From IMG/VR virus record IMGVR_UViG_3300037440_000098, positions 1 through 60,613 of that record: a stretch of DNA of 60,613 bases; one strand, 5' to 3'. The position numbers were made by a program, and so were the translations under genes. The notes beneath the pieces are model-generated. The model was given only the letters and a program-made list of their open reading frames with translations. It did not search any database and was not told the DNA's origin. Positions 969 to 60,296 of this stretch are shown one piece after another. How positions within the stretch are numbered: position 1 is the first letter of the stretch; every line of letters begins with the position of its first letter. Source of the DNA: a virus. Its lineage: Duplodnaviria > Caudoviricetes.

Positions 969-1375
969 TGTCCCTGCCTCGCTTCCATGAATGCGTGTCT
1001 GCGGTACGGGTTATCCCACCCACGACCGTGTTCGGCCATGTGGTCGGGACGTATGCACAAGGGCTGATCGCATTCCGGCGACAGCTCCACGGACCGAGGC
1101 AGTTCCCGTACACACATGGCGTACAGAATCCGTCTCGCCTTACCTAGCTTGTGGTGCCCCCTACGGGCATCGATGTAGAACTCCGGGGCACCATTGCCGT
1201 CTGTCTTGCCCATCCACACCAAGCACCCGTCCGCCGTAGTCGGCAGACGTACCTTGGCCCACAGTCGGCGCTGTGCCTTCTCGCCGATCACTTCCGGCGC
1301 AACTTCCATGTCAGCCGGACAAGCCTGCCCAGCCAACAGCACGTGCACCCGTACTTGACAGCGTGGCCGAACCAC
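965..1375 (-). CDS. HNH endonuclease-like protein, probably degenerate (start may be 1309)
   Basis: RLWAKV..GCLVWMG..ARRILY..C..PLCIRPDHM pattern of phage HNH proteins, with His and Asn positions substituted. Confidence 0.65.
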   Translation of the reverse strand: MVRPRCQVRVHVLLAGQACPADMEVAPEVIGEKAQRRLWAKVRLPTTADGCLVWMGKTDGNGAPEFYIDARRGHHKLGKARRILYAMCVRELPRSVELSPECDQPLCIRPDHMAEHGRGWDNPYRRHAFMEARQGQ

Positions 1376-1385
1376 GTGTTGCCGT

Positions 1386-1814
1386 TCATCCTTCCTGGTC
1401 CTGTGCGATCAGGCAGTCTTTACGGTCGTCGGCGTGGACCGACACCCAGTGGTTCACGTCCGCGCCCTGGTCCGGGGTGTGGATGAACCAGAACAGGTTG
1501 GCCAGGTGATTGCCCAACCTGCCCTCCCTGAACTTCTCCAGCTCCGTGTACGCATTCGAGTGGATGTCCTGGTCCTTGAGCGCACCGAACACCAGTTGAA
1601 TGCGGTCGTTCTCGCCGTCGTCCTCGACGTCCAGCGAGCGAATGCCGTCTTCCCATACGTCGATGGCCTCGGCCAGGGTGGACGCGCAGTACACGTCCGA
1701 CTCGGGCAGGTATCCCGGCATGTTCTCGCCCACGTGGAAGTGTCCGGTCACCTCCCTGTAGTCGACCCGGTTGGTACCGATGTCCTTGACCGGCTTACTC
1801 AGGCTCACTGCCAT
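1386..1814 (-). CDS. hypothetical phage protein
   Basis: ORF with SD AGGGAG and high-GC3 codon usage. Confidence 0.75.
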   Translation of the reverse strand: MAVSLSKPVKDIGTNRVDYREVTGHFHVGENMPGYLPESDVYCASTLAEAIDVWEDGIRSLDVEDDGENDRIQLVFGALKDQDIHSNAYTELEKFREGRLGNHLANLFWFIHTPDQGADVNHWVSVHADDRKDCLIAQDQEG

Positions 1815-2074
1815 GTGTCCGACTCCCTCTTCTGCTTACGCCACGCGTGGTCACGTGCGTAGTCCATCATGCTGATGTTGGCCATGAGTCCCACCGCAAA
1901 GGCGGACGCGCCGACCATGAGTCCGCCGAAGAACATGAAGAACGAACTCACCGGGTCACTCACCCAATGCGAACCCACCATGCCACCTACGCCGATGACG
2001 ATACCGAGCGTGGCCCATGCCAGCACCCGACGTGTCGTCCTCTTGATGTTCTCGAACACCTCGTCGGTGTCCAT
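1805..2074 (-). CDS. small membrane protein (two TM helices)
   Basis: Two hydrophobic segments; SD GGAGGTGA. Confidence 0.75.
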   Translation of the reverse strand: MDTDEVFENIKRTTRRVLAWATLGIVIGVGGMVGSHWVSDPVSSFFMFFGGLMVGASAFAVGLMANISMMDYARDHAWRKQKRESDTWQ

Positions 2075-2086
2075 TCGATCACCTCC

Positions 2087-2135
2087 AGTGCCGTCCCTGG
2101 CCTTGCACCAGGGTGGGGGCTCGTTCCCCTACGGC
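2087..2135 (-). ncRNA. minimal tRNA-like element B (variant T-loop)
   Basis: GCCGT/ACGGC closing stem, GGGG-AACGAGC-CCCC hairpin, CCCTGG-TGCAAGG-CCAGGG arm, 3' ACT; intergenic. Confidence 0.4.
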
Positions 2136-2142
2136 GGTACTG

Positions 2143-2370
2143 CTACGGCCTGGTGTGCCGTCGTGCGAACTTCACCAGTGCCTCACCCTGCTTGACCGCG
2201 TCCTCGGTACCGACCGCTTCCGCCCCATCGGCGAACTTGAAGCGCGTCGTCTCCGTGGACTCGGCAGTGATCAGGGCATCCCCGTCCGTGATGTTGGCGT
2301 ACTCCGCCTCCAGTCGTTCCAGCTTGGACCGGTTGCCCCGCTCATGTGCATTCACGCTAGACCTCCACAC
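2143..2370 (-). CDS. hypothetical protein
   Basis: ORF in the minus-strand gene run; start uncertain. Confidence 0.6.
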   Translation of the reverse strand: MWRSSVNAHERGNRSKLERLEAEYANITDGDALITAESTETTRFKFADGAEAVGTEDAVKQGEALVKFARRHTRP

Positions 2371-2935
2371 TGGGCTGTACTGCCCACTCGGGAACCGTCA
2401 TGACCGGCCGCAGGTGCGCGGTACGGTCTGAGATCAGGCTCTCTCGGTACTCGGCCAGGTACTCAGGCGAACTGTCGTTGTCCGGGCTGGACTTCAGCCC
2501 CTCGATCTCCAGTTCCGCTTCGTCCCTGGCTCGCTGGTTGTGCTTCTCGACGTACAGCGCCGCCCGGTCCCAGTCCTGGAACGTCATGAAGGCGTGTTCG
2601 TCCGCGCCGTAACCCACGATGACCTGTGCCAGCAGCGGGTAGACCTCATCGGCCCACTCGGTACCCTCCTGCCCGTCGTTCTCCGGGTCGCGGTTGTCCG
2701 CGTAGACGAACGAGACCACGTTCCGGCCGTTGTTCGCACCCTCCAGAGTGGACCGCCATGCCACCTTGACCCGCGCGGTGAGCGTGTTCCCCTGGTTGAA
2801 CCCGACCATGATGCGGTCACCCTCGATCAGGTCACACGCGGGCCACCGCTTGGCCCAGTGCTCCCCCTTCTCCCGCTTGGGCAGCTCCGGAACCGTCAGC
2901 CGGATGGTTCCCCGCTCGCGTCCGTCGTTGCTCAT
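2357..2935 (-). CDS. hypothetical phage protein
   Basis: TAATG coupling with upstream gene; codon bias. Confidence 0.75.
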   Translation of the reverse strand: MSNDGRERGTIRLTVPELPKREKGEHWAKRWPACDLIEGDRIMVGFNQGNTLTARVKVAWRSTLEGANNGRNVVSFVYADNRDPENDGQEGTEWADEVYPLLAQVIVGYGADEHAFMTFQDWDRAALYVEKHNQRARDEAELEIEGLKSSPDNDSSPEYLAEYRESLISDRTAHLRPVMTVPEWAVQPSVEV

Positions 2936-3258
2936 TACGCCCCTCGTTCCTCGTTGATACCGCTACCGTCGCAGCCGTTGCACTTGCACCAGGCCACGTG
3001 AAGCTCACGCGGGTGATAGGCCGCCTGCCTGTTCCACGGCCCGTCATCGGACAGCATGTGAACGATGACCATCTCACTCCCGTACGTGTCCACCACGTCC
3101 CCCACGTAGGTGAAGCGAGCGCGAGCGGAATTGAATCCGCTCCCCGTCTCGCTCTCCATCAGGAAGTACGGACGTACCCGGACCCTCACGTCGTTGTCCA
3201 CCACCTCAGCCGGTGTCGCACCCTTGTGCGTCTGTGGCTTACGAAGACTCCACTTCAT
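2935..3258 (-). CDS. hypothetical protein with C-terminal CxCxxC
   Basis: SD GGGAG; coupled to the next gene. Confidence 0.7.
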   Translation of the reverse strand: MKWSLRKPQTHKGATPAEVVDNDVRVRVRPYFLMESETGSGFNSARARFTYVGDVVDTYGSEMVIVHMLSDDGPWNRQAAYHPRELHVAWCKCNGCDGSGINEERGA

Positions 3259-3261
3259 GAC

Positions 3262-3293
3262 TTGACTCCCACTTGTTGACTCCCACTTGTTGA
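3262..3293. repeat. 14-bp tandem duplication TTGACTCCCACTTG that duplicates the RBS region
   Basis: ttgactcccacttg ttgactcccacttg ttga. Confidence 0.8.
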
Positions 3294-3353
3294 CGTTCGC
3301 GCGGACAGTCGGGCAGAGGCACAGGGCCTCTACCCTCAGACCGTTACGACCGG

Positions 3354-3464
3354 TCAGAACACTTGCTGTGCCAGCCAGGCCAGTCCCAGCACGCTACCGG
3401 CGATGAGCACTACGAGAATCACCACGTAGAGTGTGAACATCACATAGATTACCTTGGGTACCAT
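3354..3464 (-). CDS. 36-aa single-TM membrane peptide (MVPKVIYVMFTLYVVILVVLIAGSVLGLAWLAQQVF)
   Basis: Translated by hand; SD AGGGGAG; below the ORF-track cutoff. Confidence 0.65.
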   Translation of the reverse strand: MVPKVIYVMFTLYVVILVVLIAGSVLGLAWLAQQVF

Positions 3465-3496
3465 GATTTCTCCCCTTGTTGACGGGTCTTGCTGAG

Positions 3497-3542
3497 TGCT
3501 CCGGGCAGGTATCGAGCCTGCCTTACGCCGCGCGGCCGGAGC
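3497..3542 (-). ncRNA. minimal tRNA-like element C
   Basis: 7-bp GCTCCGG/CCGGAGC acceptor stem, 14-nt linker, GCAGG-CTCGATA-CCTGC T-arm, then ACTCA. Confidence 0.6.
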
Positions 3543-3557
3543 TACCAGGCACAGGGC

Positions 3558-4451
3558 CTAGAAGAGTGCGATCTGTCGCGGCTTGGCCGGTACCGGGATG
3601 TCCGAGAACAGATGGTGCTTGACGATCTCCCGCAGGTCATCGGTCGTAGCGTCGATCCACGTACCGCACCCGTCCGCGCCGCAGTACCACTGCCACGAGA
3701 CGAGACGGTTGTGTTCCCGCTGCTCGATGTAGAACGTGGAGTCGTTCTCCCAGTAGGTCAGGTTCGCCACGTATTCCGGGTCGGTGTCGTCGTCCAGCTC
3801 CTCGTACTCCTCCGTCACGTCGGAGCTTCCGAAGGTTCGCCACCCTTCCCCGTCGGAGTTACGGAGCTTACCCAGCAGCCACGCGCGACACCCGGCGTGG
3901 TCCTCTTCCTCGTTCTTCCGGGCGTGCTCGCCGTCCGCGCAGTCGCAACCCTCCTCCGCGTAGCAGTTATACCCGTCCGGGTGGTTGGCCTCCCACTCCC
4001 GCTCGCTGTAGTCCTCCTCATCCAAGACCGGATAATCAGACAGCGCGTTGACGATGTCCATAGCGGCCTTGACCGATACCGCATCGTCCACCCGGATCAT
4101 GACCGACTCATTCCAGCCGTTCAGGCAGGAACCCTCCGTATGGGTCATGTTGCCGGGGTGCTCGGAGATGTGACCGAACGACTCGGCCTTTTCCATCTCC
4201 CGCTCGATCACGGACCAGTTCGATTCCGTACGAGCGTCGGCGTCCCTGTGCGTCCCGAGAGGAGTGGTCACGTAGACCACACCGGACGGCTGTCCCCATT
4301 CGTTGATGTCGTTCCGGTACCCGAACCCTCCCGACCAGTTACGCCGGAAGTTCTCGCGGTCCGATTCCGCACCCTGGCACTCACGAATGAAGTCGCCCAG
4401 CGACGATTCCATGATCCGCTTTGTCCTACGTGCGCGCGTACCCATGCCCAT
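3558..4451 (-). CDS. acidic, Cys-containing hypothetical protein
   Basis: 297-aa ORF with SD GAGGGAG. Confidence 0.8.
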   Translation of the reverse strand: MGMGTRARRTKRIMESSLGDFIRECQGAESDRENFRRNWSGGFGYRNDINEWGQPSGVVYVTTPLGTHRDADARTESNWSVIEREMEKAESFGHISEHPGNMTHTEGSCLNGWNESVMIRVDDAVSVKAAMDIVNALSDYPVLDEEDYSEREWEANHPDGYNCYAEEGCDCADGEHARKNEEEDHAGCRAWLLGKLRNSDGEGWRTFGSSDVTEEYEELDDDTDPEYVANLTYWENDSTFYIEQREHNRLVSWQWYCGADGCGTWIDATTDDLREIVKHHLFSDIPVPAKPRQIALF

Positions 4452-4512
4452 GATGACTCCCTCTTGTGTCGTGTGCCGTGATCGGCCATCCGTGCCGTAA
4501 TCGGCTGATGAG

Positions 4513-4559
4513 TGGACGGCCAGGGGTCGAACCTGGCACCCGGCCTTGACCGGTCGTCC
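4513..4559 (-). ncRNA. minimal tRNA-like element D
   Basis: GGACG/CGTCC stem, CCGGT-CAAG-GCCGG hairpin, GCCAGG-TTCGACC-CCTGGC arm, then ACTCA. Confidence 0.6.
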
Positions 4560-4566
4560 CGATGTC

Positions 4567-4956
4567 TCAGTAATTCAGGTCGGACAGTGACACGTCGAAC
4601 GGCTCCCCGTAGTGCCGACCCTGGAACAGCTCGGTGATCTTGATGGTCTTGCGGTCCACGACCGCAACCACCTTGACCCGCTCCCCGAAGTAGTACAGGG
4701 AGTCACCCTTTTCGATGTTGTGCTTTCCGGCAGTCGGGACCGTACCGAAGCCACACGCCGTCTTGAACTTGTCCCGGTCAAACCGACCATTGTCACGTCC
4801 GAACATGGACGCCAGACCCTCCATGACCTCACGCAACGTGGCTTCCTTGGCAGCCTTACGGACGGGGGTCTCGTATCGCGCGTACTTCCACGAATTCGCG
4901 ATGATCTCAGCGGCGCTCTCGTAGTCCTTACGGCTCATGCTCATGATGACTCCCAC
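4567..4956 (-). CDS. hypothetical protein (start probably 4944, MSMSRKDY)
   Basis: MSRKDY..NGRFDRDKF..AC motif typical of small phage proteins. Confidence 0.75.
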   Translation of the reverse strand: MGVIMSMSRKDYESAAEIIANSWKYARYETPVRKAAKEATLREVMEGLASMFGRDNGRFDRDKFKTACGFGTVPTAGKHNIEKGDSLYYFGERVKVVAVVDRKTIKITELFQGRHYGEPFDVSLSDLNY

Positions 4957-4995
4957 TGTGTAGCTTTTCTACTGCCGACCATGATTGGCCGGGCA

Positions 4996-5053
4996 TGGCG
5001 GAGGTGAGGGGAGTCGAACCCTTCCCGTAGGCCGATCCTGTATCGGCACCCCC
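4996..5053 (-). ncRNA. 58-nt D-armless tRNA-like element E with G3.U70 and encoded CCA
   Basis: GGGGGTG / CCGAT-ACAGG-ATCGG / CC-TACG-GG / AAGGG-TTCGACT-CCCCT / CACCTCC-G-CCA. Confidence 0.65.
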
Positions 5054-5059
5054 TGTGCC

Positions 5060-5677
5060 CTACGGGCACTCGGTACGAATCTCCGTGATCTTGCGCCCGC
5101 CCGGCTTACCGTCCTCGTCGCGGAACTGCACGACATACCGGCCGTCGTACCCGCACTTGGCCTTGAGCTTGTCCATGTTGAGCGGAACGGCCGTCACAGC
5201 TTCCCGGTAGTTGAGCGCTTCCCCCTTCAGGTAGTCGATCATCTCACCCTTGGTCAGACCCTGGTGTGTGATCTCATGCACCAGAACCGGACCAGCCGGA
5301 GCCGACCACATGCCGCCCATGTCACCCGCGATGTACAGCCCGTACGGGTGCTGCCGGTAGACCTTGAGGCACAGAGGCCGGTACTTGGCCGGGAACAACT
5401 TGCAGTCGCTCAGGTGGTTGTGCTTGACCGGCTTAGCCATAGCGACCGGAGCCGTAGGCGCAGCCATCGGCGCAGGCTCCGGGGTCTGTGCCTTGTCCGG
5501 ACCACACGCGGTCAGCAGCACCAGAGCGGCCACGATGATCATGGCGACCGCCGCCGGGGCCATCATTCCGAGGAATTCCCGGATCGGACCGCGCACGTTG
5601 GGCACGTGCTCTACCCCCGTAGCCACGAATCCCGTACGCCCGTCCACCTTGACCGGTCGTGTGTAGTCAATGCTCAT
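5060..5677 (-). CDS. putative lipoprotein or membrane-anchored protein
   Basis: Hydrophobic helix ending in lipobox-like LLTA-C, then a Pro/Ala linker. Confidence 0.65.
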   Translation of the reverse strand: MSIDYTRPVKVDGRTGFVATGVEHVPNVRGPIREFLGMMAPAAVAMIIVAALVLLTACGPDKAQTPEPAPMAAPTAPVAMAKPVKHNHLSDCKLFPAKYRPLCLKVYRQHPYGLYIAGDMGGMWSAPAGPVLVHEITHQGLTKGEMIDYLKGEALNYREAVTAVPLNMDKLKAKCGYDGRYVVQFRDEDGKPGGRKITEIRTECP

Positions 5678-5750
5678 CTTTCCGACTCCCCTTGTCCGTG
5701 GGATTGATCTTGTTCAGTCTCTGCCTGTGGCCCCGTGTGGCGCGTTGTGC

Positions 5751-5789
5751 GCCGCGCGGGAGGGTTGGGGCCGTCACCTCCCGCGCGGC
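5751..5789 (-). terminator. 13-bp stem hairpin, probable terminator or processing site
   Basis: gccgcgcgggagg...cctcccgcgcggc. Confidence 0.55.
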
Positions 5790-5814
5790 TGTCTGTGGTG
5801 CCGTTCTGTCTCGC

Positions 5815-6852
5815 CTAGCGGGTGGCGCGCCGCGCCGCCGCCGCGCGGGACGCACGGGCCTTGTTCGTCTCGACCTGCCGACGGTACCGACGCTGCTGAG
5901 TACGAGTCAGGTTGTCGTACTCATCCTGTGTCATGAAGCCATGACGACCGCCCACGGTGGGAATTTCTACCGAGCGCTTGTCCGTCTGCTCACGACCCAA
6001 AGGAGCGTCCATGGTGGTGGATACCGGCTTGCCACCCTCGGCACGTTCCTTGGGTCCGGTCACCTTGTCCGCGTCCATGGCCTTACCGCGAGTGAGGGAC
6101 GTACGACCGGGCAGCATTCCCGCACGGGCACCCCCGATCATGTCGTCTGCACCCTTGTGCGCACTGTCCACGGTGGCCGGTGCTGCCGGAGCTTCTGACC
6201 CAACCTTGACTTCCGTCAGACCCTCCGACTTAGGCGCACGACCGGCCACCCAATGCGCAGTCATGACCATGGTTCCGTCGTGATCCTTCATGGGACCAAC
6301 CCATGAGCACGCACGGCACACACCGGTTCCGTCGCCGTTCTCCAGACCGGGCGCGTTCGCGATGCACTTGACCTCTCCGACCGGCTTGTCTGTCTTGGCC
6401 GCTTTCTTGGCCTTACCCTTACCGGCTTTCTTGGCCTTGACCGGCTTTTCCGTGGATTCCGACAGTTCGGCCACAGTCGCCGCGCCGTCCATGGTGATGA
6501 TCACCGCGTCCGGGTCGCTCATGATCATGTCCGCTACGGTCGGCCCGTTCTCCAGTGCTGCCGCCGCTTGTGTCGCACTCTCCAGAGCATCGGCATACCC
6601 GAGCGATTCCGACCACTTGACGCACCGCTTGCACTGTGCGTCACCGGTGAACTTGCCCACCATGCGCGCCGTTTCCAGCGTCTTACCCGACGCGCAAACG
6701 ATCTCCACCGTTTCGGAGTTTCCCCCGATGTGGTCACCGCCGAGCGTGATCACGCTGGACATGATCATGTGGCCGACACCCTTTTCGTACCCGAACCATC
6801 CGGGGGTACCGTCAAGGGTCAACGCCATTTCCAGCTTGCTCCGACTGCTCAT
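5815..6852 (-). CDS. hypothetical protein with CxxC motifs, Lys-rich patch and Arg-rich tail; first gene of the leftward operon
   Basis: ORF trimmed to ATG 6852 behind GAAAGCGGGAG. Confidence 0.75.
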   Translation of the reverse strand: MSSRSKLEMALTLDGTPGWFGYEKGVGHMIMSSVITLGGDHIGGNSETVEIVCASGKTLETARMVGKFTGDAQCKRCVKWSESLGYADALESATQAAAALENGPTVADMIMSDPDAVIITMDGAATVAELSESTEKPVKAKKAGKGKAKKAAKTDKPVGEVKCIANAPGLENGDGTGVCRACSWVGPMKDHDGTMVMTAHWVAGRAPKSEGLTEVKVGSEAPAAPATVDSAHKGADDMIGGARAGMLPGRTSLTRGKAMDADKVTGPKERAEGGKPVSTTMDAPLGREQTDKRSVEIPTVGGRHGFMTQDEYDNLTRTQQRRYRRQVETNKARASRAAAARRATR

Positions 6853-7913
6853 GACTCCCGCTTTCCGGGCCGTTATCGGCCCTAGTCGCACCACTCCCCA
6901 TGGCGGAGAGGGTCGCAGAGGCACACGGGCGCACTAGTCCCCTAGCATTTCGGGAACCGTCCGTGACTATGGTGCATTGGCATAGCGCAACAGAGCGTTA
7001 CCGTCGCTTTCCAATGCCCGTGTGCCTTTGACACCCTCCCCGTAGCGCTACCGCACTACGGTTTGGGTGCGACTTTTCGTAATCCGGCCCTAGTTCCCTA
7101 CGTAGGTAGGGAATCGTTGGCCATGTGAGGGGAGCAAGGTTCGTATCCCATGCCTACGCCACGAATTACCGCCGTTGTCAGCGTACGTGACGCATATGGT
7201 TTGTCAACCCTCACACGTTCCTACCGTGCGACCGTGTTCGGTGCACTCTCCGGTTTACAACCCGTGGGCATTCTTCCCGTAGGTAGGACTGTTACGCGTT
7301 CCGTACTAAGGCCATGTCCGTTATCCCGTTCTAGTCGCGTACTTTGCTCGCACCATGTTCCACACTCTCAGCCGTAATCGGCCAATGCATGTGGTCATCA
7401 TGTGACGTTCGCTTTCCGCGTCATGTACTAAGGCAGACACGACCGTTTCAGGTCGCTAGTCGCATACACACTGTGGTCACGGCCCTTGCGTCTCCCGACG
7501 CGCGCCGATCCTGTCAAACAACGGAGGCACACAGCCTCGCTAACGCCATTGCCCAAGGGTCGCCCGCCGTAGTCAGCAGTGCTACCTACGCTCGCTTGTG
7601 CCATGTCCGTGTTCGGCCATGTGTACCGCGCTGCGTCGCATGTGCGCTTGTTTCGCACCACCTACGCCTAGACCAGCCGCCCGAGCGGGAATATCGCTCG
7701 GAAGTCATGGCGCACGGCCATGTGTGGCCATGTTGTGTGATGCGGGGGTGTTGCTGTTGTGGTCGTGTCCCGAGCACTCATACGCTCACTGGCGCTTGCC
7801 CGCCCTGCCTGTGTTGCGCCCACCGTGTTCGGCGGGGTGTTGCTGAGGAGGACTATCCGGGTTTCCGGTGACGACCGCAACCCCCAATCTCAAATGATCA
7901 TGGAATTGGGTGC

Positions 7914-8148
7914 GTTTTGCCTGGTCAGAGCCCTAAAAATTTTTTCACGCAGCCTCGATCTCGTGTCCGAATTGGGGTGGGTATGTCCTGAGATCGGTGT
8001 GAGGGACATATCGGACACCAGGCAAACCGGGACATGCTGACTGTTTTGGCTGGTCAGATGGGGTGTCCCGCCAGTAACTTGACGACTCGTCAGATCCGGC
8101 CTGACGACCTGTCAGGCACAGGACGGCGGGCTCGTTTTGGCTGGTCAG
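7914..8148 (+). repeat. three direct copies of GTTTTG(G/C)CTGGTCAG
   Basis: Copies at 7914-7928, 8043-8057 and 8134-8148. Confidence 0.75.
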
Positions 8149-8300
8149 GTGGGGTGGAGACAGGTATGGGGAGGAAATGGGACAGAAGGGATTGTTACTC
8201 GTGGGTTGTCTTACATCGTGAGACGCGAAAATGACCGGATGGTGAGACAAACAGGGGTGCAGTGCGCTGACCTGGGGTTATACGCGCGTAGACGAATTTT

Positions 8301-9490
8301 GTGAATGCCCGAATTTGACGAGTATGCGTGTCCAATGGTGAATCAGACTCTATTCACCACGAGTGAATAGGGTCATATTCCTTTTCGTTATAAACGACGT
8401 GAGCTGCGGTTATGGTCCCTATTCACTAAAAGCTGTAGCTAATTCACCGAGGAATACCGCTCGGTAATAGTGAATAGGATATAGCAAACTCTCTAATCTA
8501 TATAAGAGTTATATATTTAATTATAGTGAATAAGGTGGGTAGAGCTGTACCTTATTCCTATTCACTACGGAGAGATTAAGAGAGGGTCTAGGCGACACGC
8601 ATTTTTGCTACGACAATTCGGACACCTATGGTGAATAGCGTTTCCGTTATGGGTGTTGTAAGTAACGAGCCGTTATCAAATTGGGCCTTGTTCACTACAA
8701 TCATGGTGAATATGGCGTTGTTCACTGCAATGGTGAATGCGGCGTTATTCACTTGGGTGAATAGGGAATAAGGTAGGGCGGCTGTAGTGAATAGGGTATG
8801 AGTGACAGGTGAATATGGCGTTGTTCACCTCGATGAATAAGGCCATAGCCAATGGTGAACAAGCCGATATCTGTAGCGTATTCACTGTTTTGGTGGTGAA
8901 CAAAGGATGCCGCTATTCACGGTCGTTGGTATCGGGCCGGTAACAGTTTTGATTGTCACCGTTATGTACGTTATTCACTACGGGAAGGGTGAATACGGCC
9001 TAGGTGAATATGGCGTTATTCATTGTTGGGTGCGCGTGAAATAGGTAGTCGTTATTCACGTGCTAGTGAATGTGGCTGTATTCACTAGGGATGTGGTGAA
9101 TACGGTCATGGTGAATAACGTCAATGGTGAATAAGGTATAGTGAATAGGTGTATTTCACTAGCGCGAGAATTGACGCTGACATGACACGTGATGTGAATA
9201 GGCATGTGGTGAATAAAGCCTATGTGAATACGCGCACGGCTCTGTGCCTATTCACACCCTGACTACAATAGGTGTATTACCCATGCATGTAGGTGAATAG
9301 CATAGTCACTATTCACTGCTAATGGTGATGTGACACATAGTCAGAGTGAAGTGATGCAGCATCAGATGAGTGAATTGGAATGCTCGCAGCAATGGCGCAG
9401 CAATGGCCGTGTGCCTATTCACTCGATAATGTAGGTGAATAGGGATGGAATGAATTCGAGTGAATAAGAAACCACGTGAAATGCCGGTGT
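8301..9490. repeat. AT-rich array of GTGAATA/TATTCAC heptamers; candidate origin or packaging region
   Basis: About 32 exact copies counted by eye plus variants, in both orientations; very AT-rich core at about 8488-8532. Confidence 0.85.
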
Positions 9491-9623
9491 GAAAAACCAT
9501 ATTCAGTACCCAATTCTGATAAAAGCTGGGTGGTGATACCTATGTGTCCATCAATGCGAAATTTTTCCTGGCTGCGACATCTACACGGATTTGTCCCATT
9601 TGTAACGCGGTATGCTCAGGAAC

Positions 9624-52118: not shown

Positions 52119-52131
52119 GTCCTTCCCTCGC

Positions 52132-52689: not shown

Positions 52690-54274
52690 GGTAGAAGCTC
52701 CTCATCTCTACGCGGTTCTCATCGGTACGGATGTAGACACCCTTGTCGATGGTGCCTCGGGACTGGATATACCACCGGTTGACCATCCTCTCCTGCCCCG
52801 TGCGGAGCAGTCGAGCCTTGGCCTGCTCGTTCATGAGGTTGTTGTCGTCCTGGCTAAGCCAGACCTCATTGGCACAGACGCGCTGAAGGCCGTCCGTACC
52901 TTCGGCGACAGCACCGATCACGGCCACGATGATCTGCGGACCGTTCGGCTTCCCGAAGGTGTCCATGATCTTCCGCCGCTGCGGCTGTGACGTGTCGCCA
53001 GACCAGATCACGGCGCGCTTACCGAGCTGGTGTTGTACCGGGACAGCGAAGCGCTTGCTGTGGAGGTAGACCATGACCGGCTCACCATCAGGCAGGTCAG
53101 CCAGGATCTCCTTCAACGCCTCGATCTTGGAGGACTTCGAGTTGGGCCGGAAGTACACTTCCAGCTTCTCCTCGATCTCCTCCGTGATGACTGTCTCGAC
53201 TACGTCATCCCATTTCTCATCAAGGACGTTGTCGTCCTCGTCTCGGGTGACCTCGACCAGCTTGCGCTTGGTCACCTCCATGGGCTTGCGCTTGACCTTC
53301 TCCACCACCACGGCGGATGGCGTACCGAGGGCGACCTGCCTGAGCCGGATACGCTGCGTGATGGGCAGCGGTGTACCGACAGGCATGTCTTCCAGCCAGG
53401 CGAAGGCTTGGTCCTTGAAGTCCTTGTAGATCTTGGACTGCTTCGGACCCATCTCCACCTCGACCACGTGCTCAGCCAGCGGCGGAAGCTGAGCCACGTC
53501 CTCCAGCTCCAGCCTGGTGTAGCTGGGGATGTCACGGATGGTGGACCCCGGCTCGACTTCGCCCTCGATGGCGATCTTCTTGTACGGGTCGGGCCTGGTG
53601 ATCATGGTCTCGTTGATCCATGGCCAGAAGTACGGATACTTCGCAGGCCACAGCCAGTTGAGCGTGGACCACAGCCCCTCCTTGCGGTTGCCCGCAGGAG
53701 TACCGGACATGGCCAGCCGACGAACCGTGTCGATGTGCTTCAGCACCTTGGCCGACATCGATTTGCGGTTCTGCATCCGATGGCACTCGTCAGCCACGAC
53801 CAGGTCGAACGTGCCCGCGAGTTGCCACGGTGGCACGTGGCTGATCTCTCCAACCACATCCCCGGCTGGGTCCTTGACCTTCTCGACCCATCCATGCATG
53901 GCCTCCCACCCGATGATGTACACACCACCGAGCTTGAAGCTGGAGGTCAGTCGCTTCCAGTTGGGTTCGTCAGATGATGGTGTACCGACGATGAACACCG
54001 CCGTACCCGGCATCTGCCGCTTGATGGTGTACTCCCACGAATGGTGGGTGTTGATGGGAGCGACCACCAATGCCCGGAGTCGGCCGGGCAATTCCGTCTC
54101 GACGCCGTTGATCTCCTTGATCCTGGGCGTCTCCTGGATCTGTCGCATCAGCTCCACAGCAAGAAGGGTCTTGCCGGTTCCCATTCCCCACGCCACCAAG
54201 GACGATCGGAACTGTGAAACCTGGTCAAGACCCTTTTGCTGGTAGCTTCTGAGCTTCAGAGGCTCGTCAGCCAC
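52670..54274 (-). CDS. SNF2-like superfamily 2 helicase
   Basis: LRSYQ, MGTGKT, LVVAP, DECH, MSGTP, EGTDGLQ, Q...RL.R.GQ. Confidence 0.9.
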   Translation of the reverse strand: MADEPLKLRSYQQKGLDQVSQFRSSLVAWGMGTGKTLLAVELMRQIQETPRIKEINGVETELPGRLRALVVAPINTHHSWEYTIKRQMPGTAVFIVGTPSSDEPNWKRLTSSFKLGGVYIIGWEAMHGWVEKVKDPAGDVVGEISHVPPWQLAGTFDLVVADECHRMQNRKSMSAKVLKHIDTVRRLAMSGTPAGNRKEGLWSTLNWLWPAKYPYFWPWINETMITRPDPYKKIAIEGEVEPGSTIRDIPSYTRLELEDVAQLPPLAEHVVEVEMGPKQSKIYKDFKDQAFAWLEDMPVGTPLPITQRIRLRQVALGTPSAVVVEKVKRKPMEVTKRKLVEVTRDEDDNVLDEKWDDVVETVITEEIEEKLEVYFRPNSKSSKIEALKEILADLPDGEPVMVYLHSKRFAVPVQHQLGKRAVIWSGDTSQPQRRKIMDTFGKPNGPQIIVAVIGAVAEGTDGLQRVCANEVWLSQDDNNLMNEQAKARLLRTGQERMVNRWYIQSRGTIDKGVYIRTDENRVEMRSFYRVGTEQ

Positions 54275-54579
54275 TCCAACATGCCTTTCTCTCGGAGCCC
54301 GGCGTCCACGTCCACCCATCGGTGCGCGGCCGTCTGCTCGTTCCAACCCTTCAGGTCGGCGTACCACTGCCGCCAGGCGGGGAGGGTGGAGGTGGACCAC
54401 CCGTACGTCTTCTTCGTCTCGCCCTTGACCTGCTGCTGTGCCAGTACGACCGTGGGGTCAGGCACACGGGCCTCGCTTCTGGTCTCCGGACCGTGGCGCA
54501 TGAGCCACTGGTACACAGCCGTCCGCTCCACGCCGCAGTAGTCCGCGATCGTCTGGATTCCGATGTAGTTGTCCGGCAT
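54256..54579 (-). CDS. HTH DNA-binding protein
   Basis: IGIQTIADYCGVERTAVYQWLMR. Confidence 0.72.
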   Translation of the reverse strand: MPDNYIGIQTIADYCGVERTAVYQWLMRHGPETRSEARVPDPTVVLAQQQVKGETKKTYGWSTSTLPAWRQWYADLKGWNEQTAAHRWVDVDAGLREKGMLEWLTSL

Positions 54580-54592
54580 GTCCTGCCTTTCG

Positions 54593-55654
54593 TCAGCGCT
54601 TGAGGCGCGTTACCTTCTCGCGGCGCACCAGAGGCAGACCCTCGTGTCCAACCCAGTGCGCGGGAATCCAGATCGGATGCTCACGCAGCTCAGGGCTGAA
54701 CTTCTCGTTCTTGTACTCCCTCCAGTGCCCTCGGCGATCATATCGCACCGAAAGCTGGCGCTTGGGTGCAGCCTCGTCCACCTCCTTGGTGGGGTTCGGC
54801 TTGATGGTGCGCTTGTCGATGACCGTGACGCTCGTACCGAGTTCAGGGTTCATCCGCTGGATACGACGCCACGATGAGCGCGGAGCCTCGACCACAGAAG
54901 CAGCCGTCGTGTACTGACGGAGCATCAGGCACCCACTCAGGAGAATGGCCATGGTGTGCCTGCTGTAGCTCTCGCCCTCCAGGAAGTTGGCGTTGTTCTG
55001 GTTCCTAGAGATGCGCCGCATGTAGTCGCTGAGCTTCACGGTGAGTTGACCACAGACCATGAGTGGTCCCATGTTCATCATCCGCGCGTTGACTTCCTGC
55101 CTGGTAGGCGCAGAACCACCGACCAGGTCACGCATCCGATCCGACCGCGCCTGTTCCATGGCCAGCCGCATGAAGCTGTCCGTCTCGGTCCATGCCAGGA
55201 TGCGGATGACCTCGCCCGTGATGCACCAGGACAGAGCCATCATCCTGGTCTCGTTCGGAGACTTGGCCTTCCACTCGTACGCCCGGTCATCGAACGCCTT
55301 GGTGCTGTAGCCCTTCTCGAAGAACATCACACCGTGGTCGGTGTGGAACCAGTGACGCTGTACGTCCAAGTCCAGCGGCAGCTTGCCCGCCGCTTCGATG
55401 ACCTCTGGCATCTTGTGGTCCGTGATGTGGAACAGGTCAGCGATGTTCAGGCTGGCGCTGTGCCGCCTGGCCAACCCTCGGGCCTGTGCCTGATCGGTCT
55501 CGCTCGGTCCGCTGTCCAGCAGCGTCTCCACGTCACCGACCAGGTAGGCCATCATCGAACCAGCACCATCCTGGTCCGACCTGTCCATCCACTGGTGCAT
55601 CTCAGCTCTGTATTCCGGGCACTTGACCGGCCAGACCTGCTTGATCCTTCCCAT
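54593..55654 (-). CDS. hypothetical phage protein with C-terminal RGHWR..WI..HW.G motif
   Basis: ATG 55654 behind GGGAG. Confidence 0.75.
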   Translation of the reverse strand: MGRIKQVWPVKCPEYRAEMHQWMDRSDQDGAGSMMAYLVGDVETLLDSGPSETDQAQARGLARRHSASLNIADLFHITDHKMPEVIEAAGKLPLDLDVQRHWFHTDHGVMFFEKGYSTKAFDDRAYEWKAKSPNETRMMALSWCITGEVIRILAWTETDSFMRLAMEQARSDRMRDLVGGSAPTRQEVNARMMNMGPLMVCGQLTVKLSDYMRRISRNQNNANFLEGESYSRHTMAILLSGCLMLRQYTTAASVVEAPRSSWRRIQRMNPELGTSVTVIDKRTIKPNPTKEVDEAAPKRQLSVRYDRRGHWREYKNEKFSPELREHPIWIPAHWVGHEGLPLVRREKVTRLKR

Positions 55655-55685
55655 ACTGACTCCCGCTTGTCCGTGTTGCATTGCG

Positions 55686-55760
55686 CGGTCGGGGCTGGAT
55701 TCGAACCAGCACTGACGGGGGCTATCCTCCCCTGCCTCTGCGCGATTGGGCTACCCGACC
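55686..55760 (-). tRNA. tRNA-like element F with non-canonical anticodon loop (AGGATAG; nominal GAT)
   Basis: GGTCGGG/CCCGACC acceptor, D arm, GCTGG-TTCGAAT-CCAGC; no U33 and no encoded CCA. Confidence 0.7.
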
Positions 55761-55766
55761 TGCGGC

Positions 55767-56081
55767 TTAGTTGCCGCCGTTCTGCCTGAGCTGTTCCTTG
55801 TCCACCGAGTGCTGCTTGAACTGCGAGCAGAACTTGTCCCACGACTCGACCCGCATCAGCGAGGTGAAGTCACGGGTGGTGGAGGCGAAGCCCGCGCCAC
55901 GAACACAGAGCAGGCCGATGTTCGGCCGTCCGTCCGTGTTGTTGTAGATCTCGGCGTACTCCGGGTCGTACGAGCTGACGTTCTCCAGGTCGCGCTTGTC
56001 GTTCGTACCGCAGGCGGTGAGGCCCACGGCCATGGTGACAGCAGCTCCGGCCAGTACGACGTTGCGAAGGCGCACCTTCAT
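55767..56081 (-). CDS. lipoprotein
   Basis: MKVRLRN, hydrophobic core, lipobox GLTA-C; SD AAGGAG. Confidence 0.8.
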   Translation of the reverse strand: MKVRLRNVVLAGAAVTMAVGLTACGTNDKRDLENVSSYDPEYAEIYNNTDGRPNIGLLCVRGAGFASTTRDFTSLMRVESWDKFCSQFKQHSVDKEQLRQNGGN

Positions 56082-56109
56082 GTTGTTCTCCTTGTCCGAC
56101 AGTGAGGCG

Positions 56110-56185
56110 TGGATGGGACGGGAATCGAACCCGTGTCAGCTCCGAGGTCTAAGTCTCAGCCGCTCTACCATTGAGCTACCCACCC
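56110..56185 (-). tRNA. tRNA-like element G with G3.U70, A73 and an irregular 8-nt anticodon loop
   Basis: GGGTGGG/CCCATCC-A, TA-GCTC-AATGGTA-GAGC, CTGAG-ACTTAGAC-CTCGG, ACGGG-TTCGATT-CCCGT. Confidence 0.72.
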
Positions 56186-56211
56186 TCACCCGGCACAGGG
56201 CCGGGCTCCGT

Positions 56212-56367
56212 TCAGTTCTTCCGTGGAGGAAGCGGTACCCGCTCCCACTTCTGGCGCTTGCGTGTCTCAGCCGTGTACTGGTACGAGCAGGACATCTTGT
56301 GCGCCCTGCCCTTCAGCACCTTGCAGCAGGCACACCGCATGATGTGCCCGCCCTCGGTGACAGTCAC
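56212..56367 (-). CDS. 51-aa micro-ORF with CxCC
   Basis: Translated by hand; GTGA-coupled. Confidence 0.5.
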   Translation of the reverse strand: MTVTEGGHIMRCACCKVLKGRAHKMSCSYQYTAETRKRQKWERVPLPPRKN

Positions 56368-56634: not shown

Positions 56635-57557
56635 TCCATGACCTCGGCTTCCACCAGCTCGCTGTTGTAGTCGGTCTCGGGTGTCAGGGCTTCGGCCTTG
56701 GCCCTGTCGGCCTGCTCCCCGCCGGTCCCTGCGGACCCTTGCCGTTCCCCCTCGGGGTCCTGTCGCTCCCCGGCCCCTTCGGATTCGGCCCTTGCGGCAC
56801 TCGTGATCTCCTTCGCTCTCGTGTTGAGCAGGGTGAGGATGGTCCGCATCCGGCCAGCCTGCATCTCGCTGGTCGGCACCGACTCCAGAATCCCGCCGAG
56901 AACTGCATCTCGGTGCAGCTTCTCCAGCGAGGTCATGTCCACGGCGTGGATGATCTGCGGAGCCAGCATGTCCTCGAACGAGGAGGTCTCCATGCGTTCG
57001 ACGTGGACGGGGTGGCCGTCCTCGTTGATGACGCGGTTGGGGTCCAGCTCCTCGACCGTGTAGTGGACGCCCATCAGGGCTTCCTCACACGCCTCCCTGG
57101 CGCACTGGGTGATGGCCCGCCACCCGAGCAGGCTTGCCGGGTACTTCACCCAGTTCTGCTTGGTCAGCAGGCCAGCATCCTGCGCGCTGGGGTTGCCGTT
57201 CTTGTTGGCCTTCAGCTCCCACGTCACCTCGAAGGTGAAGTCGGGGTCGTCCGACCGGATGATCTGTGCCGTGGCGTGGGTCGTGGTGGTCTTGACCCGC
57301 AGCTTGTGACCCGCCCGCCGCACGAGTGCGGAGATCAGGGCACCGGAGGCACAGGGCTTGCCGTCGATGACGTAGATACCCGTCACGGCCACCATGGGGT
57401 GAACGTTCAGGGACTTGGCGTACTCGGCAGCCCAGATCAGGTTGCCCGGCCTACCTCTGTACTGACCCGGAAGCATCTCCGCGCCAGCCAGCCGGTTGGC
57501 CCACGCCACCGTGTTGGCTACCTCCTGGCCACCCGCCAGTTCGATCTCTTTGCCCAT
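56631..57557 (-). CDS. RecT-like ssDNA-annealing protein
   Basis: LP.QYRG.P.N, IYVIDGKP, A.AGL..K.NW.KYP..L.WRA, G..Y..EEL. Confidence 0.78.
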   Translation of the reverse strand: MGKEIELAGGQEVANTVAWANRLAGAEMLPGQYRGRPGNLIWAAEYAKSLNVHPMVAVTGIYVIDGKPCASGALISALVRRAGHKLRVKTTTTHATAQIIRSDDPDFTFEVTWELKANKNGNPSAQDAGLLTKQNWVKYPASLLGWRAITQCAREACEEALMGVHYTVEELDPNRVINEDGHPVHVERMETSSFEDMLAPQIIHAVDMTSLEKLHRDAVLGGILESVPTSEMQAGRMRTILTLLNTRAKEITSAARAESEGAGERQDPEGERQGSAGTGGEQADRAKAEALTPETDYNSELVEAEVME

Positions 57558-57928: not shown

Positions 57929-57938
57929 GCTGTGCCTC

Positions 57939-58790: not shown

Positions 58791-58823
58791 GTCTTACTCC
58801 CCTTGTCCGTGCTGTGCCTCTCG

Positions 58824-58846: not shown

Positions 58847-58854
58847 CGACGGAA

Positions 58855-58880
58855 AGCCCCCGCCGTGGTCGGCAGGGGCT
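58855..58880 (-). terminator. terminator-like hairpin preceding the promoter
   Basis: agcccc...ggggct followed by TT on the minus strand; shares a core with 50179-50209. Confidence 0.6.
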
Positions 58881-58960
58881 CCGTGTGTGGCTGCGGCGCG
58901 CGGTTCTGGGGGAACCGGGCTCTGTCCGCTCCTCGGCCCGCCACAGGGCCGCTCAGGGGG

Positions 58961-59293
58961 TCAGCCGGAGAACGCGGGGGCGTCCGTGCTGTCCTCGTCG
59001 GTGTCGTCCTCGACCTCGGCGACCGGGCCGACGTACTTGGCGAAGACGTAGTGCGCCTCGTTGTCCTCGCCGACGTTCTCCGAGACGGCCTCGGCCTCGA
59101 AGTGCTTCGGGTTGTACGCGGTCTTGCCCTTCTTGATGTCCGAGACCATGGAGGTGGCCGACGCGCGCTTGCTGTACTCGCCGATCTGCGCCCACTGGCC
59201 GGGGTTCTCCGCCAGCTCGACGGCGTTCTCGGCGTGCTTCGAGCGGGGGGCGATCTCGTCCTGCGGCAGCTCGGTGACGAACTTCAGACCCAT
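58961..59293 (-). CDS. hypothetical protein, possibly DNA-binding
   Basis: L.ENPGQWA..FEA..VFAKYVG motif; SD GAGGAG. Confidence 0.75.
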   Translation of the reverse strand: MGLKFVTELPQDEIAPRSKHAENAVELAENPGQWAQIGEYSKRASATSMVSDIKKGKTAYNPKHFEAEAVSENVGEDNEAHYVFAKYVGPVAEVEDDTDEDSTDAPAFSG

Positions 59294-59405
59294 GTCCGTG
59301 TACTCCTCGTGAATAGGGGCCAGTCGGCCCCGTGTCCTTGTGTTTTGCGGTGGAACACCACCCTACCACGGGCGGCAGGGTGGTCCGTGCATCTTGCCCG
59401 TGTCG

Positions 59406-59840
59406 TCAGACTCGGTTGATGGTCGTCCTCTGTCGCACGTCCATCGGCCGGGGTGCCTTGCTGTCCCCGGCTCCGACCTTGCCGTCACCGTGAGCGGCGG
59501 CGGGCTTGTTGAACAACGACATGATCACGCCCAGAGGTACCTCCAAGGTGAACAAGCCGTCGATACTGACGCTGGCCTTGGTCTTCCAGCGACGGCTACC
59601 CCTCTTCCCGACCTGCCGGAAGACGAGGATGACCTTCAGCTCGTGCGTAGGACCGGAGCAGTCGGCGCTCGACTTGTCCGTCTCGTGCTCCAGTCCCATG
59701 TGGATCAGGTCGGAGCACTCCTGTGCCTCGCTGATCTCGATGGTCCACACGTTGGTGACCAGGTCCAGGATTGGTTCAACTTCCCGACCCTTGGCCGCCA
59801 GCATGGACATCAGGTGTGTGATCTTGGCCGGTGCCGTCAC
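59406..59840 (-). CDS. hypothetical protein
   Basis: GTGA-coupled to the HU-like gene. Confidence 0.65.
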   Translation of the reverse strand: MTAPAKITHLMSMLAAKGREVEPILDLVTNVWTIEISEAQECSDLIHMGLEHETDKSSADCSGPTHELKVILVFRQVGKRGSRRWKTKASVSIDGLFTLEVPLGVIMSLFNKPAAAHGDGKVGAGDSKAPRPMDVRQRTTINRV

Positions 59841-60205
59841 TTGGCCACCGTCTTGGCCGACTTGCGGACCGTGAACACCTTGGTCCGTCCGTTGACCACG
59901 TCCCTCAGCCGGTCGGAGGCGACCCACTTCACGCGCTTCTGCGCCTGGATCGTCACCCGCTCCCCGGTCTGCGGGTTGCAGGCGGTGCGCTCGTGCTGCT
60001 TGACCGGGGTCAGGCTGCCGAAGTTGGCCACGACCACGGTGAACCCGTTGGCCAGGGCCAGGTACATGGCGTCGAACACCTCGTCCACCAGCTCGTTGGC
60101 CTCGGCCATGCTGATGGGCTTGCCCTTGTTCTGACGGGTGCGGAAGACATGCGTGGCGATACGCTGCTTGCCAGCCCGCCGTGCCTTGTCCACTCCGTTG
60201 TTCAT
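59837..60205 (-). CDS. HU/IHF-family DNA-binding protein
   Basis: V.VANFGSL....ERTACNPQTGERVTI.A...VKW..S. Confidence 0.85.
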   Translation of the reverse strand: MNNGVDKARRAGKQRIATHVFRTRQNKGKPISMAEANELVDEVFDAMYLALANGFTVVVANFGSLTPVKQHERTACNPQTGERVTIQAQKRVKWVASDRLRDVVNGRTKVFTVRKSAKTVAK

Positions 60206-60251
60206 GTGTGCTCCCACTTGTCCGTTGCCGGTGAGGGACCGGCGGCCCGAG

Positions 60252-60296
60252 TGCTGTGGCCCGACTCGAACGGGCTGCCTGCCTTCAAGGCACAGC
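60252..60296 (-). ncRNA. minimal tRNA-like element I
   Basis: GCTGTG/CACAGC-A stem, small hairpin, T-arm GCCCG-TTCGAGT-CGGGC identical to element A. Confidence 0.6.

Follow-up and report, generated by a model that had tools for sequence, protein, structure and literature searches.

The viral record IMGVR_UViG_3300037440_000098 (Duplodnaviria; Caudoviricetes) was analysed over its full 60,613 nucleotides, the whole stretch being called the window below. It carries the genes of a tailed phage and, dispersed through genes and spacers on both strands, an asymmetric octamer, AGGCACAG, which is the subject of this report. An earlier reading of the same letters, the original prediction, had pointed to this word as a site on which selection acts at the DNA level. 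The base counts give a G+C content of 62.3%, where that reading had estimated about 65%.

A self-trained codon model, which is heuristic, called 66 genes and left 85% of the window as coding sequence. The terminase, portal, protease, capsid and tail genes were recognised by matching the annotation of Streptomyces phage Kela, and the tail genes share about 69% nucleotide identity with Kela and similar phages of about 185 kb. The other genes that could be recognised encode an amidase endolysin, DNA polymerase A (PolA), an HNH endonuclease, a primase-helicase, a PD-(D/E)XK exonuclease, an SNF2 helicase, a RecT-like protein, an HU-like protein and a group of glycosyltransferase, methyltransferase and pyruvyl-transferase, while most early genes had no match in PHROGs and Pfam. 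No match to the integrase families PF00589 and PF00239 was found in six frames of the window, and no repressor-like match in Pfam scans of 50 of the 66 called genes (the 16 left-out genes are mostly structural). The closest full-length relative, G002, has 61,050 bp with a 127-bp terminal repeat, and the window is colinear with it as a circular permutation. On G002 the positions of the two window ends are separated by about 890 bp, compared with 826 bp in the window, and an open frame of 233 codons spans the joined ends. Because of this colinearity with a terminally repeated genome and the open frame that bridges the two ends, we read the record as probably all or nearly all of a genome of about 61 kb, and the CheckV estimate of 32% completeness seems to stem from a comparison with jumbo relatives.

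The window contains 38 copies of AGGCACAG (15 on the plus and 23 on the minus strand), a density of 627 per Mb. The original prediction had counted at least 36; all 36 of its start positions turned out to be exact copies, and those starting at 29056(-) and 36114(-) had been missed. In dinucleotide-preserving shuffles the word occurred 3.14 ± 1.91 times (maximum 10), and none of 100 shuffles reached 38. Markov models of orders 0 to 6 gave expectations of 2.4, 2.9, 2.7, 2.0, 5.3, 15.6 and 34.2 copies, the last two being high because the 6- and 7-base sub-words of AGGCACAG are themselves enriched. Depending on the null, the over-representation is 12-19-fold. An unbiased scan of all k-mers returned two outliers, AGGCACAG and the unrelated word GTGAATA. 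The abundance of variants that had been noted was also found, with 56 copies of GGCACAG and 16 of AGGCACAC.

Most single-base variants of AGGCACAG occur near expectation, with three exceptions: the G-to-C change at position 8 that gives AGGCACAC (16 copies vs 1.9 or 3.05 expected), ACGCACAG (8 vs 2.0) and, more weakly, the A-to-C change at position 1 (9 vs 3.9). The combined form AGGCACA[G/C], written AGGCACAS below, has 54 copies. The base that follows it (position 9) is a purine in 43 of the 54 and a T in none, the second base (position 10) is a purine in 41 of the 54, and positions 11-12 are C/G. The selected site is an asymmetric AGGCACA[G/C] with a 3' flank of about four bases, about 12 bp altogether, in which the 8-bp core is stringent and the 4-bp flank is weaker.

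Of the 38 copies, 27 are genic and 11 fall in the 15% of the window that was called non-coding, as the original prediction had described in general terms (both strands, genes and spacers). It had also remarked that genic copies often read (E/K/Q)-A-Q with GCA as the alanine codon, and this holds for 14 of the 27, which read xAG-GCA-CAG; the other 13 do not fit, two being sense in another frame and 11 antisense in three frames, so that 16 genic copies are sense and 11 antisense by our gene calls. GCA makes up 12.3% of alanine codons, and 14 GCA codons fall in the word. Three synonymous nulls, with 500 shuffles each, were compared with the 27 genic copies. Shuffling within genes left 5.5 ± 1.9 copies (maximum 12), shuffling genome-wide left 4.7 ± 1.9 (maximum 11), and shuffling that also kept the dinucleotides at codon junctions left 9.3 ± 2.2 (maximum 17). 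Since 27 genic copies stand against 4.7-9.3 in amino-acid-preserving shuffles, selection acts on the DNA, and the copies in several frames, both orientations and spacers agree with this. The original prediction had made its claim depend on the enrichment outlasting an amino-acid- and dicodon-preserving null, and it outlasts all three amino-acid-preserving nulls used here; a shuffle that strictly preserved dicodons would by its design retain most of a word that spans 3 codons. A codon or peptide artefact was rejected on the grounds of the shuffles and of the spread over frames and orientations.

The sites are also preserved among related phages. A capsid-profile scan of IMG/VR gave 79 loci. A 10.8-kb locus with 94% capsid identity (G001) contains 6 copies of AGGCACAG, and two loci of about 84% nucleotide identity (L112/L113, 17.3 kb) contain 19. 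The latter keep 13 of 17 aligned window sites, where the neutral expectation is 0.25 per site (P = 1e-5), and the identity is 0.949 in the core vs 0.836 in the flanks. The comparison with related phages that the original prediction had proposed thus shows sites conserved above their flanks. In G002, with about 70% nucleotide identity, there are only 9 exact 8-mers, and GGCACAG occurs 72 times vs 9.7 expected, with C favoured at position -1 and two purines downstream. G002 keeps 7 of 21 aligned window sites (P = 1e-3), and the other 35 of the 56 sites lie in unalignable sequence. Since few sites are conserved in G002 and yet their density there is high, the sites turn over while the density is held.

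Other relatives of 56-61 kb have over-represented asymmetric words of their own. In G310 (L104-L106) the word is GCACAC[GC]C, with GCACACGC at 40 copies vs 4.4 expected and GCACACCC at 25 vs 3.8. In G308 (L101-L103) it is CGACA[GC]GG, with CGACAGGG at 53 vs 5.6 (1 for the reversed-word control) and CGACACGG at 34 vs 5.5; G309 has 52 copies of CGACAGGG (reversed-word control 2). G312 (L107-L110) shows a weaker CGACACC (103 vs 42.5). These words outlast synonymous shuffles as well, with z from 7 to 19, and have a common [C/G]ACA[C/G] core. The word drifts stepwise among related phages, through AGGCACAS, GGCACAGR, GCACACSC and CGACASGG. Phage Kela contains 4 copies of AGGCACAG in 185 kb and no comparable word in the 46 kb examined, and in nine loci of 17-21 kb from contigs longer than 150 kb related 6-mers are at most 2-2.5-fold enriched. 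Besides its octamer, G308 contains words rich in TATATA, and it encodes a C5 DNA methyltransferase at 5577-6125.

Likely hosts do not carry the signal. Streptomyces is a guess at the host from the endolysin, whose full-length relatives lie in Streptomyces at five of seven loci (46-48% identity). Five Streptomycetaceae genomes (four Streptomyces and one Yinghuangia, 7.7-9.4 Mb) contain 236-389 copies of AGGCACAG each, which exceeds the reversed-word control (range 359-632) in one genome only, G006, with 389 vs 359. In an even draw of 301 actinomycete genomes across that class, the highest density found was about 44 copies per Mb (G019) vs 627 per Mb in the phage, and the result holds without the eight unpublished genomes (G269, G013, G042, G036, G049, G038, G030, G021). 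This is the host-genome comparison that the original prediction had suggested. For the genomes sampled, the word is private to the phage and not a host signal, and a host-wide signal of the kind of Chi, the FtsK-orienting polar sequences (KOPS) or the DNA uptake sequences (DUS) was rejected as no enrichment occurs in the five Streptomycetaceae or the 301 actinomycetes.

Along the window the two orientations are interspersed throughout, with no switch point and no polarity linked to replication or transcription. Relative to the genes, AGGCACAS is sense 21 times and antisense 16 times, and the orientation is mixed in G002 too; most copies of the words of G308 and G310 are antisense, a bias that may reflect codon cost. 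Even spacing that ignores the strand is weak (coefficient of variation (CV) 0.71 for the 8-mer, P = 0.018; broader definitions not significant). In G002 sites of one orientation alternate with those of the other (runs test P = 0.003), the spacing on each strand is regular (CV 0.55 and 0.68, P = 0.0003 and 0.0067; mean about 1.6-1.9 kb), and permutation of the strand labels gives P < 1e-4, or P = 0.0024 without the sites that have a neighbour within 150 bp. Close pairs are usually inverted and can form hairpins, such as the strong spacer hairpin at 37066/37094 of G002. Within the primase-helicase gene, two GGCACAG cores at 47412 and 47529 form an inverted pair with a separation of 117 bp, which G002 (26914/27031) preserves at about 70% identity.

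The second outlier, GTGAATA/TATTCAC, has 42 copies in the window vs 2.6 expected. A non-coding stretch of 1.1 kb (8351-9460), upstream of the putative small terminase and terminase genes, contains 32 of them, and 8 lie in a divergent spacer at 24893-25222, 15.5 kb off. They occur in both orientations, often as GGTGAATA or GTGAATAGG. As the original prediction had noticed, copies of the octamer or its variants sit beside these arrays: 9242(-) and 9409(-) overlap GTGAATA, and 25233(-) is 4 bases from one. The arrays look like iteron or operator arrays and perhaps mark an origin or pac region. The iterons of ori and crr in phage P4 are a similar octamer, which is bound by the P4 primase-helicase. 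G002 has a different AT-rich word, TGAATTAG, in 11 copies. Copies in or beside several tRNA-like elements had been described too, and here only one tRNA is backed by Rfam (56110-56185, adjoined by a GGCACAG copy starting at 56192). ARAGORN reports it at 56109-56185(-) with the four-base anticodon 'ttag', with Rfam support at 53.7 bits; a further ARAGORN tRNA-Ile(gat) at 55685-55760(-) has no Rfam report at the gathering score.

Table 1. Copies of the octamer and its position 8 variant in the window, with the genes discussed as possible readers or partners.
Feature	Position	Strand	Remark
AGGCACAG	1271..1278	-	spacer (own gene calls)
AGGCACAG	3317..3324	+	spacer; AGAGGC/GCCTCT stem surrounds copy
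AGGCACAG	3547..3554	+	spacer
AGGCACAG	5367..5374	+	antisense in gene
AGGCACAG	5486..5493	-	sense, K-A-Q
AGGCACAG	8114..8121	+	large non-coding region
AGGCACAG	9242..9249	-	fused to GTGAATA unit
AGGCACAG	11316..11323	-	antisense in terminase gene
AGGCACAG	12238..12245	-	antisense; kept in G001
AGGCACAG	12607..12614	+	sense, K-A-Q
AGGCACAG	16683..16690	-	sense, Q-A-Q
AGGCACAG	18129..18136	+	sense; GGCACAG kept in G001 and G002
AGGCACAG	22057..22064	-	spacer of convergent genes; kept in G001
AGGCACAG	23842..23849	-	sense
AGGCACAG	25233..25240	-	adjoins second GTGAATA array
AGGCACAG	29056..29063	-	antisense; absent from the original prediction
AGGCACAG	29859..29866	+	sense, tape-measure gene
AGGCACAG	32628..32635	+	sense; kept in G002
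AGGCACAG	35773..35780	+	sense, other frame
AGGCACAG	36114..36121	-	antisense; absent from the original prediction
AGGCACAG	37590..37597	-	antisense; G002 keeps core with 5' C
AGGCACAG	40391..40398	-	kept in L113
AGGCACAG	40714..40721	+	spacer; kept in L113
AGGCACAG	43151..43158	-	sense, PolA gene; kept in L113
AGGCACAG	43727..43734	-	sense, PolA gene; lost in L113
AGGCACAG	44463..44470	+	antisense; kept in G002, ACGCACAG in L113
AGGCACAG	44618..44625	-	sense; kept in L113
AGGCACAG	47412..47419	-	primase-helicase gene; arm of inverted pair
AGGCACAG	47528..47535	+	primase-helicase gene; other arm of conserved inverted pair
AGGCACAG	48257..48264	-	sense; kept in L112
AGGCACAG	50558..50565	+	antisense; kept in L112
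AGGCACAG	52297..52304	-	sense; kept in L112
AGGCACAG	55484..55491	-	sense; kept in L112
AGGCACAG	57347..57354	+	antisense, RecT-like gene; kept in L112
AGGCACAG	57930..57937	-	short spacer, 1 base ahead of ATG
AGGCACAG	58812..58819	-	spacer
AGGCACAG	59721..59728	-	sense, E-A-Q
AGGCACAG	60288..60295	+	spacer
AGGCACAC, 16 copies	519..56335		starts 519-, 6919+, 7020-, 7525+, 9409-, 10409-, 10496+, 16120-
AGGCACAC, remaining starts			18780-, 19300+, 33888-, 36465+, 51924-, 54460+, 54954-, 56328+
Primase-helicase, 812 aa, candidate reader	45493..47931	-	Pfam PF16793 and PF13148
PD-(D/E)XK (Cas4/RecB-like) exonuclease	49005..49700	-	PF12705 at E 5.5e-4, below cut-off; tblastn matches in every genome compared
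NUMOD4 and HNH_3 endonuclease	42279-42722	-	directly downstream of DNA polymerase A gene
RecT-like protein	56631-57557
HU-like protein	59837-60217	-
Weak helix-turn-helix (HTH)	54256-54579	-
Putative small terminase	9612-10292
TylF-like S-adenosylmethionine (SAM) methyltransferase	15778-16386		among glycosyltransferases

To find proteins that could read the word, the gene products of the window were compared by tblastn (E <= 1e-5) across the five motif-bearing genomes (the window, G002, G310, G308 and G312). It turned out that the primase-helicase and the PD-(D/E)XK exonuclease are the only non-structural window proteins with matches in the four other genomes; G310 has no match to SNF2, and G308 and G312 have none to PolA. 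The primase-helicase had nothing at E <= 0.01 in a sequence search of the PDB. An AlphaFold (AF2) model from an alignment of 30 homologues (mean predicted local distance difference test score, pLDDT, 83.3) was searched with Foldseek, in which the N-terminus matched the primase RepB' (3h20, E 6e-7; 3h25_A, TMt 0.63) and the C-terminus matched MCM helicases (8s09_5, E 2e-8). By its predicted fold, the product joins an archaeo-eukaryotic primase (AEP) of the RepB' type to an MCM-like AAA+ helicase. Between these two parts, the helical region (residues 207-340) evolves fastest, with 67% identity to the closest homologue vs 85-96% elsewhere. Other collections also contain homologues of the primase, on contigs of about 59-60 kb. 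Among enzymes of this class described in PMC8718748, the primase of pRN1 ORF904 reads 5'-GTG-3' through a helix-bundle domain, the enzyme of phage NrS-1 reads 5'-TTTGGTTA-3' and 5'-GTG(A/G)-3', and initiation takes place at the first base 5' of the recognition site (PMC8718748). The complement of the word, CTGTGCCT, has a central GTG.

Our tentative preference, held as a possibility rather than a likelihood, is that the word is an extended recognition or priming site for the phage's own primase-helicase; we infer both the reader and the function. The template would be the strand carrying the complement 5'-CTGTGCCT-3', on which the helical domain of the primase would recognise the GTG-centred word. 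The primer would start just 5' of the word on the template and would begin with the purine-rich bases that follow AGGCACAG on the motif strand. Because the specificity would be long, the genome would have had to build up sites in either strand, with about one per 1.1-1.6 kb in total, and host DNA would rarely be primed, since it has about one copy per 23 kb or fewer.

Several observations weigh against this assignment. The strongest is that an orthologous primase-helicase (40% identity) occurs in Kela and other jumbo relatives, which show no enriched word, so that the protein alone does not predict the motif. The GTG in the complement is weak evidence, because GTG/CAC occurs by chance in about one sixth of 8-mers and the variants are related by descent; besides, CCCTGTCG, the commonest word of G308, has no GTG. 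The 3' purine bias could be just more of a duplex-binding site, and known AEP primase words are mostly of 3-4 bases. Strand-aware spacing, which favours a strand-specific process, is solid in G002 only. Okazaki-like intervals between sites on one strand are clear there and marginal in the window, where some tests give P 0.02-0.07 and others are not significant (runs test P = 0.02 for GGCACAG and 0.21 for the 8-mer; label permutation P = 0.04-0.07). G308 and G312 show no such regularity, and that of G310 rests mostly on close pairs. In addition, the gene calls are heuristic, and a tblastn comparison can miss small DNA-binding proteins that evolve fast.

A more ambitious version, which we consider rather doubtful, is that the word is a phage-private replication barcode. 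Here a primase specificity of 8-12 bases and co-evolved sites on both strands would let only phage DNA be efficiently primed, and word and reader would drift together by lineage. If this were true, the lock and key would be specific to a lineage, and could keep lineages apart or bar satellites and host DNA from access to the phage replisome.

The first alternative, with a modest chance of being right, is that the word is bound as duplex DNA by a sequence-specific phage protein (such as the HU-like protein, a small HTH protein or the small terminase) that marks or organises phage DNA in an architectural, packaging-recognition or regulatory role, much as uptake sequences or a monomeric stoperator repressor do. 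An asymmetric stringent core with a footprint of about 12 bp is what such a protein would leave, 11 of the 38 copies fall in the 15% non-coding sequence, and inverted pairs in some relatives build strong spacer hairpins, as at the G002 pair above. Uptake sequences likewise form inverted pairs in terminators. The window does encode an HU-like protein and a weak HTH, the motif drifts by lineage as stoperators are described to do with their repressors (PMC6550527), and a monomeric repressor that reads an asymmetric site is described in PMC9283540. The HU-like protein, to which the original prediction had pointed as a binder, is nevertheless rejected as the common reader, as its family occurs in only 2 of the 5 motif-bearing genomes, and apart from the replication proteins no DNA-binding protein was found by tblastn in all five. 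A binder that ignores orientation fails to predict the strand-aware spacing of G002; most copies are genic in either orientation, unlike operators, and the six frames gave no match to the two integrase families.

It is unlikely, in our estimate, that the word is a private Chi-like mark, at which a helicase-nuclease (an enzyme of the host, or the phage PD-(D/E)XK exonuclease working with a helicase) would be attenuated in an oriented manner. The nuclease would then degrade host DNA and spare phage DNA that has permuted ends or breaks. Such a mark would be expected to look much like this word, an asymmetric 7-8-mer on both strands at about one per kb that turns over while its density is kept, with both orientations spread along an apparently circularly permuted genome, and rare in likely hosts as a discriminator of self from host needs to be. 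The exonuclease is one of the two non-structural genes in all motif-bearing genomes, and the RecT-like protein would be a partner. Set against this, Kela has the exonuclease and no motif, a Chi of the host should be enriched in the host chromosome and this word is not, no large helicase-nuclease like RecBCD, AddAB or AdnAB appeared in the Pfam scans of the window, and we know of no sequence-regulated nuclease of the RecE or lambda-Exo type.

It is quite improbable that the word is the target of an enzyme that nicks DNA or modifies bases at specific sequences (the NUMOD4-HNH protein, for instance, or an unrecognised modification enzyme), with the sites marking nicks or modified bases in virion DNA. 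Nickases and enzymes of type IIG, type III and the BREX-like kind typically have asymmetric words of 7-8 bp, and their specificities drift easily. The HNH endonuclease of the window has matches in G002 and G310 but none in G308 and G312, and nicking or modification by itself does not select for extra sites. A phage DNA methyltransferase or restriction-modification motif was rejected: PF01555, PF00145 and PF02384 have no match in the window, its sole SAM methyltransferase is TylF-like and lies among glycosyltransferases, and the C5 enzyme is found only in G308.

Little credence is likewise given to a host factor that the phage would recruit or titrate, with sites not enriched in the host chromosome and a motif that differs as hosts differ. 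No phage gene is both universal to the motif-bearing genomes and absent from the motif-free relatives, and the motif variants follow phage lineages possibly with different hosts. This explanation is without a known candidate, depends on the endolysin-based guess at the host, and has to cope with very close motifs (A or C at position 1) that separate phages sharing about 70% nucleotide identity. Finally, the idea that the word has no function and is a by-product of peptide or codon preference, or of a mutational or gene-conversion drive, is very improbable and largely refuted: half of the genic copies do encode (E/K/Q)-A-Q and the synonymous shuffles leave about 5 copies instead of about 2.5, so that the amino-acid sequence contributes slightly, but the enrichment over amino-acid-preserving nulls is 5-fold, copies occupy five frame and orientation classes plus spacers, sites are conserved above their flanks, and different words in four other genomes behave alike.

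Some neighbouring genes deserve a record of their own. An opposite-strand trio within the structural block (14882-17078, minus strand) encodes a glycosyltransferase, the TylF-like SAM methyltransferase and a polysaccharide pyruvyl transferase, which suggests decoration of the virion with glycans and not DNA modification. Between the primase-helicase and the exonuclease, a 241-aa protein (48224-48949, minus strand) is DUF669-like by structure, with a template modelling (TM) score of 0.46 (query) and 0.64 (target). It may be a single-strand-binding protein of the phage, and a PDB sequence search gave four weak, chance-level matches only (E 0.31-0.73). A 353-aa protein (54593-55654, minus strand) groups with AcrVA2-like (PF26125) clusters in a protein atlas with a feature score of 0.98, which is a lead only. 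It also matches PHROG 15934, whose function is not known, and had nothing at E <= 1 in the PDB sequence search. In G002 the homologue of the HNH endonuclease is encoded elsewhere in the genome, which is how a mobile homing endonuclease would be expected to behave.

In the accessible parts of the literature searched, there was no description of a phage-private genome-wide octamer of this kind. The original prediction had proposed a dispersed protein-binding or self-recognition site analogous to Chi, KOPS or stoperators. The general part stands, as the sites are dispersed, selected at the DNA level and conserved above their flanks; membership in the named families does not, given the lack of host enrichment and the comparison with stoperators. 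The stoperators of cluster A mycobacteriophages and R4-like Streptomyces phages resemble the present sites in being dozens of asymmetric sites with drifting motifs, and are described as a 13-bp asymmetric core, mostly in one orientation relative to transcription, in temperate phages with a repressor (PMC6550527). Such phages also carry an integrase or parABS. Here, in contrast, the core has 8 bp, 27 of 38 copies are genic with 16 sense and 11 antisense, and there was no integrase match in six frames and no repressor-like match in the 50 genes scanned, so the word was not placed among stoperators on any of core length, orientation bias or integrase and repressor content. KOPS and the SpoIIIE recognition sequences (SRS), read by the translocases FtsK and SpoIIIE, share with it the form of an asymmetric octamer. 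KOPS are strongly skewed toward dif on the host chromosome, whereas the strands here are balanced (15 plus, 23 minus) with no switch point, and the word is not enriched in hosts.

Chi, as used by RecBCD and AddAB, is likewise an asymmetric word of 5-8 bases, over-represented, dispersed through genes and serving as a self mark for a DNA-tracking enzyme. However, a Chi sequence is dictated by the enzyme of the host, whose chromosome is enriched in it, and the present word is not enriched in the genomes sampled. The DUS of Neisseria and the uptake signal sequences (USS) of Haemophilus occur about once per kb, similarly in both orientations, within genes and as inverted spacer pairs, and their sites turn over. 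The present word shares all of these features, with turnover at kept density, but theirs are chromosomal tags read by the competence machinery and this one is private to a phage genome.

As for the recognition sites of AEP primases, RepB' of RSF1010 reads the hairpin single-strand initiation (ssi) sites ssiA and ssiB at an origin, and to our knowledge no AEP primase site enriched genome-wide on both strands has been reported. The likeness lies in a predicted RepB'-fold primase with a helical domain fused to a ring-helicase fold, in a complement that contains GTG, and in would-be primer-start bases that are purine-rich and never T, which other readers predict as well. Known words are mostly of 3-4 bases, while this one has 8, and an 8-base recognition word is described for a phage enzyme of the class in PMC8718748. 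If the primase-helicase does read the word, this would be the first case known to us in which the specificity of a replicative primase has shaped a whole genome, and the relatives would provide a natural series of readers and words for the evolution of primase specificity. If another protein reads it, the sites are a ready-made assay to find that reader. In either case, the motif is of practical use for recognising members of this phage group when metagenomic sequences are binned and classified. Work on Chi, KOPS, uptake sequences and stoperators has in each instance brought to light a machine that tracks along DNA and the way in which it distinguishes self from non-self, and the word described here is a clean new example to set beside them.

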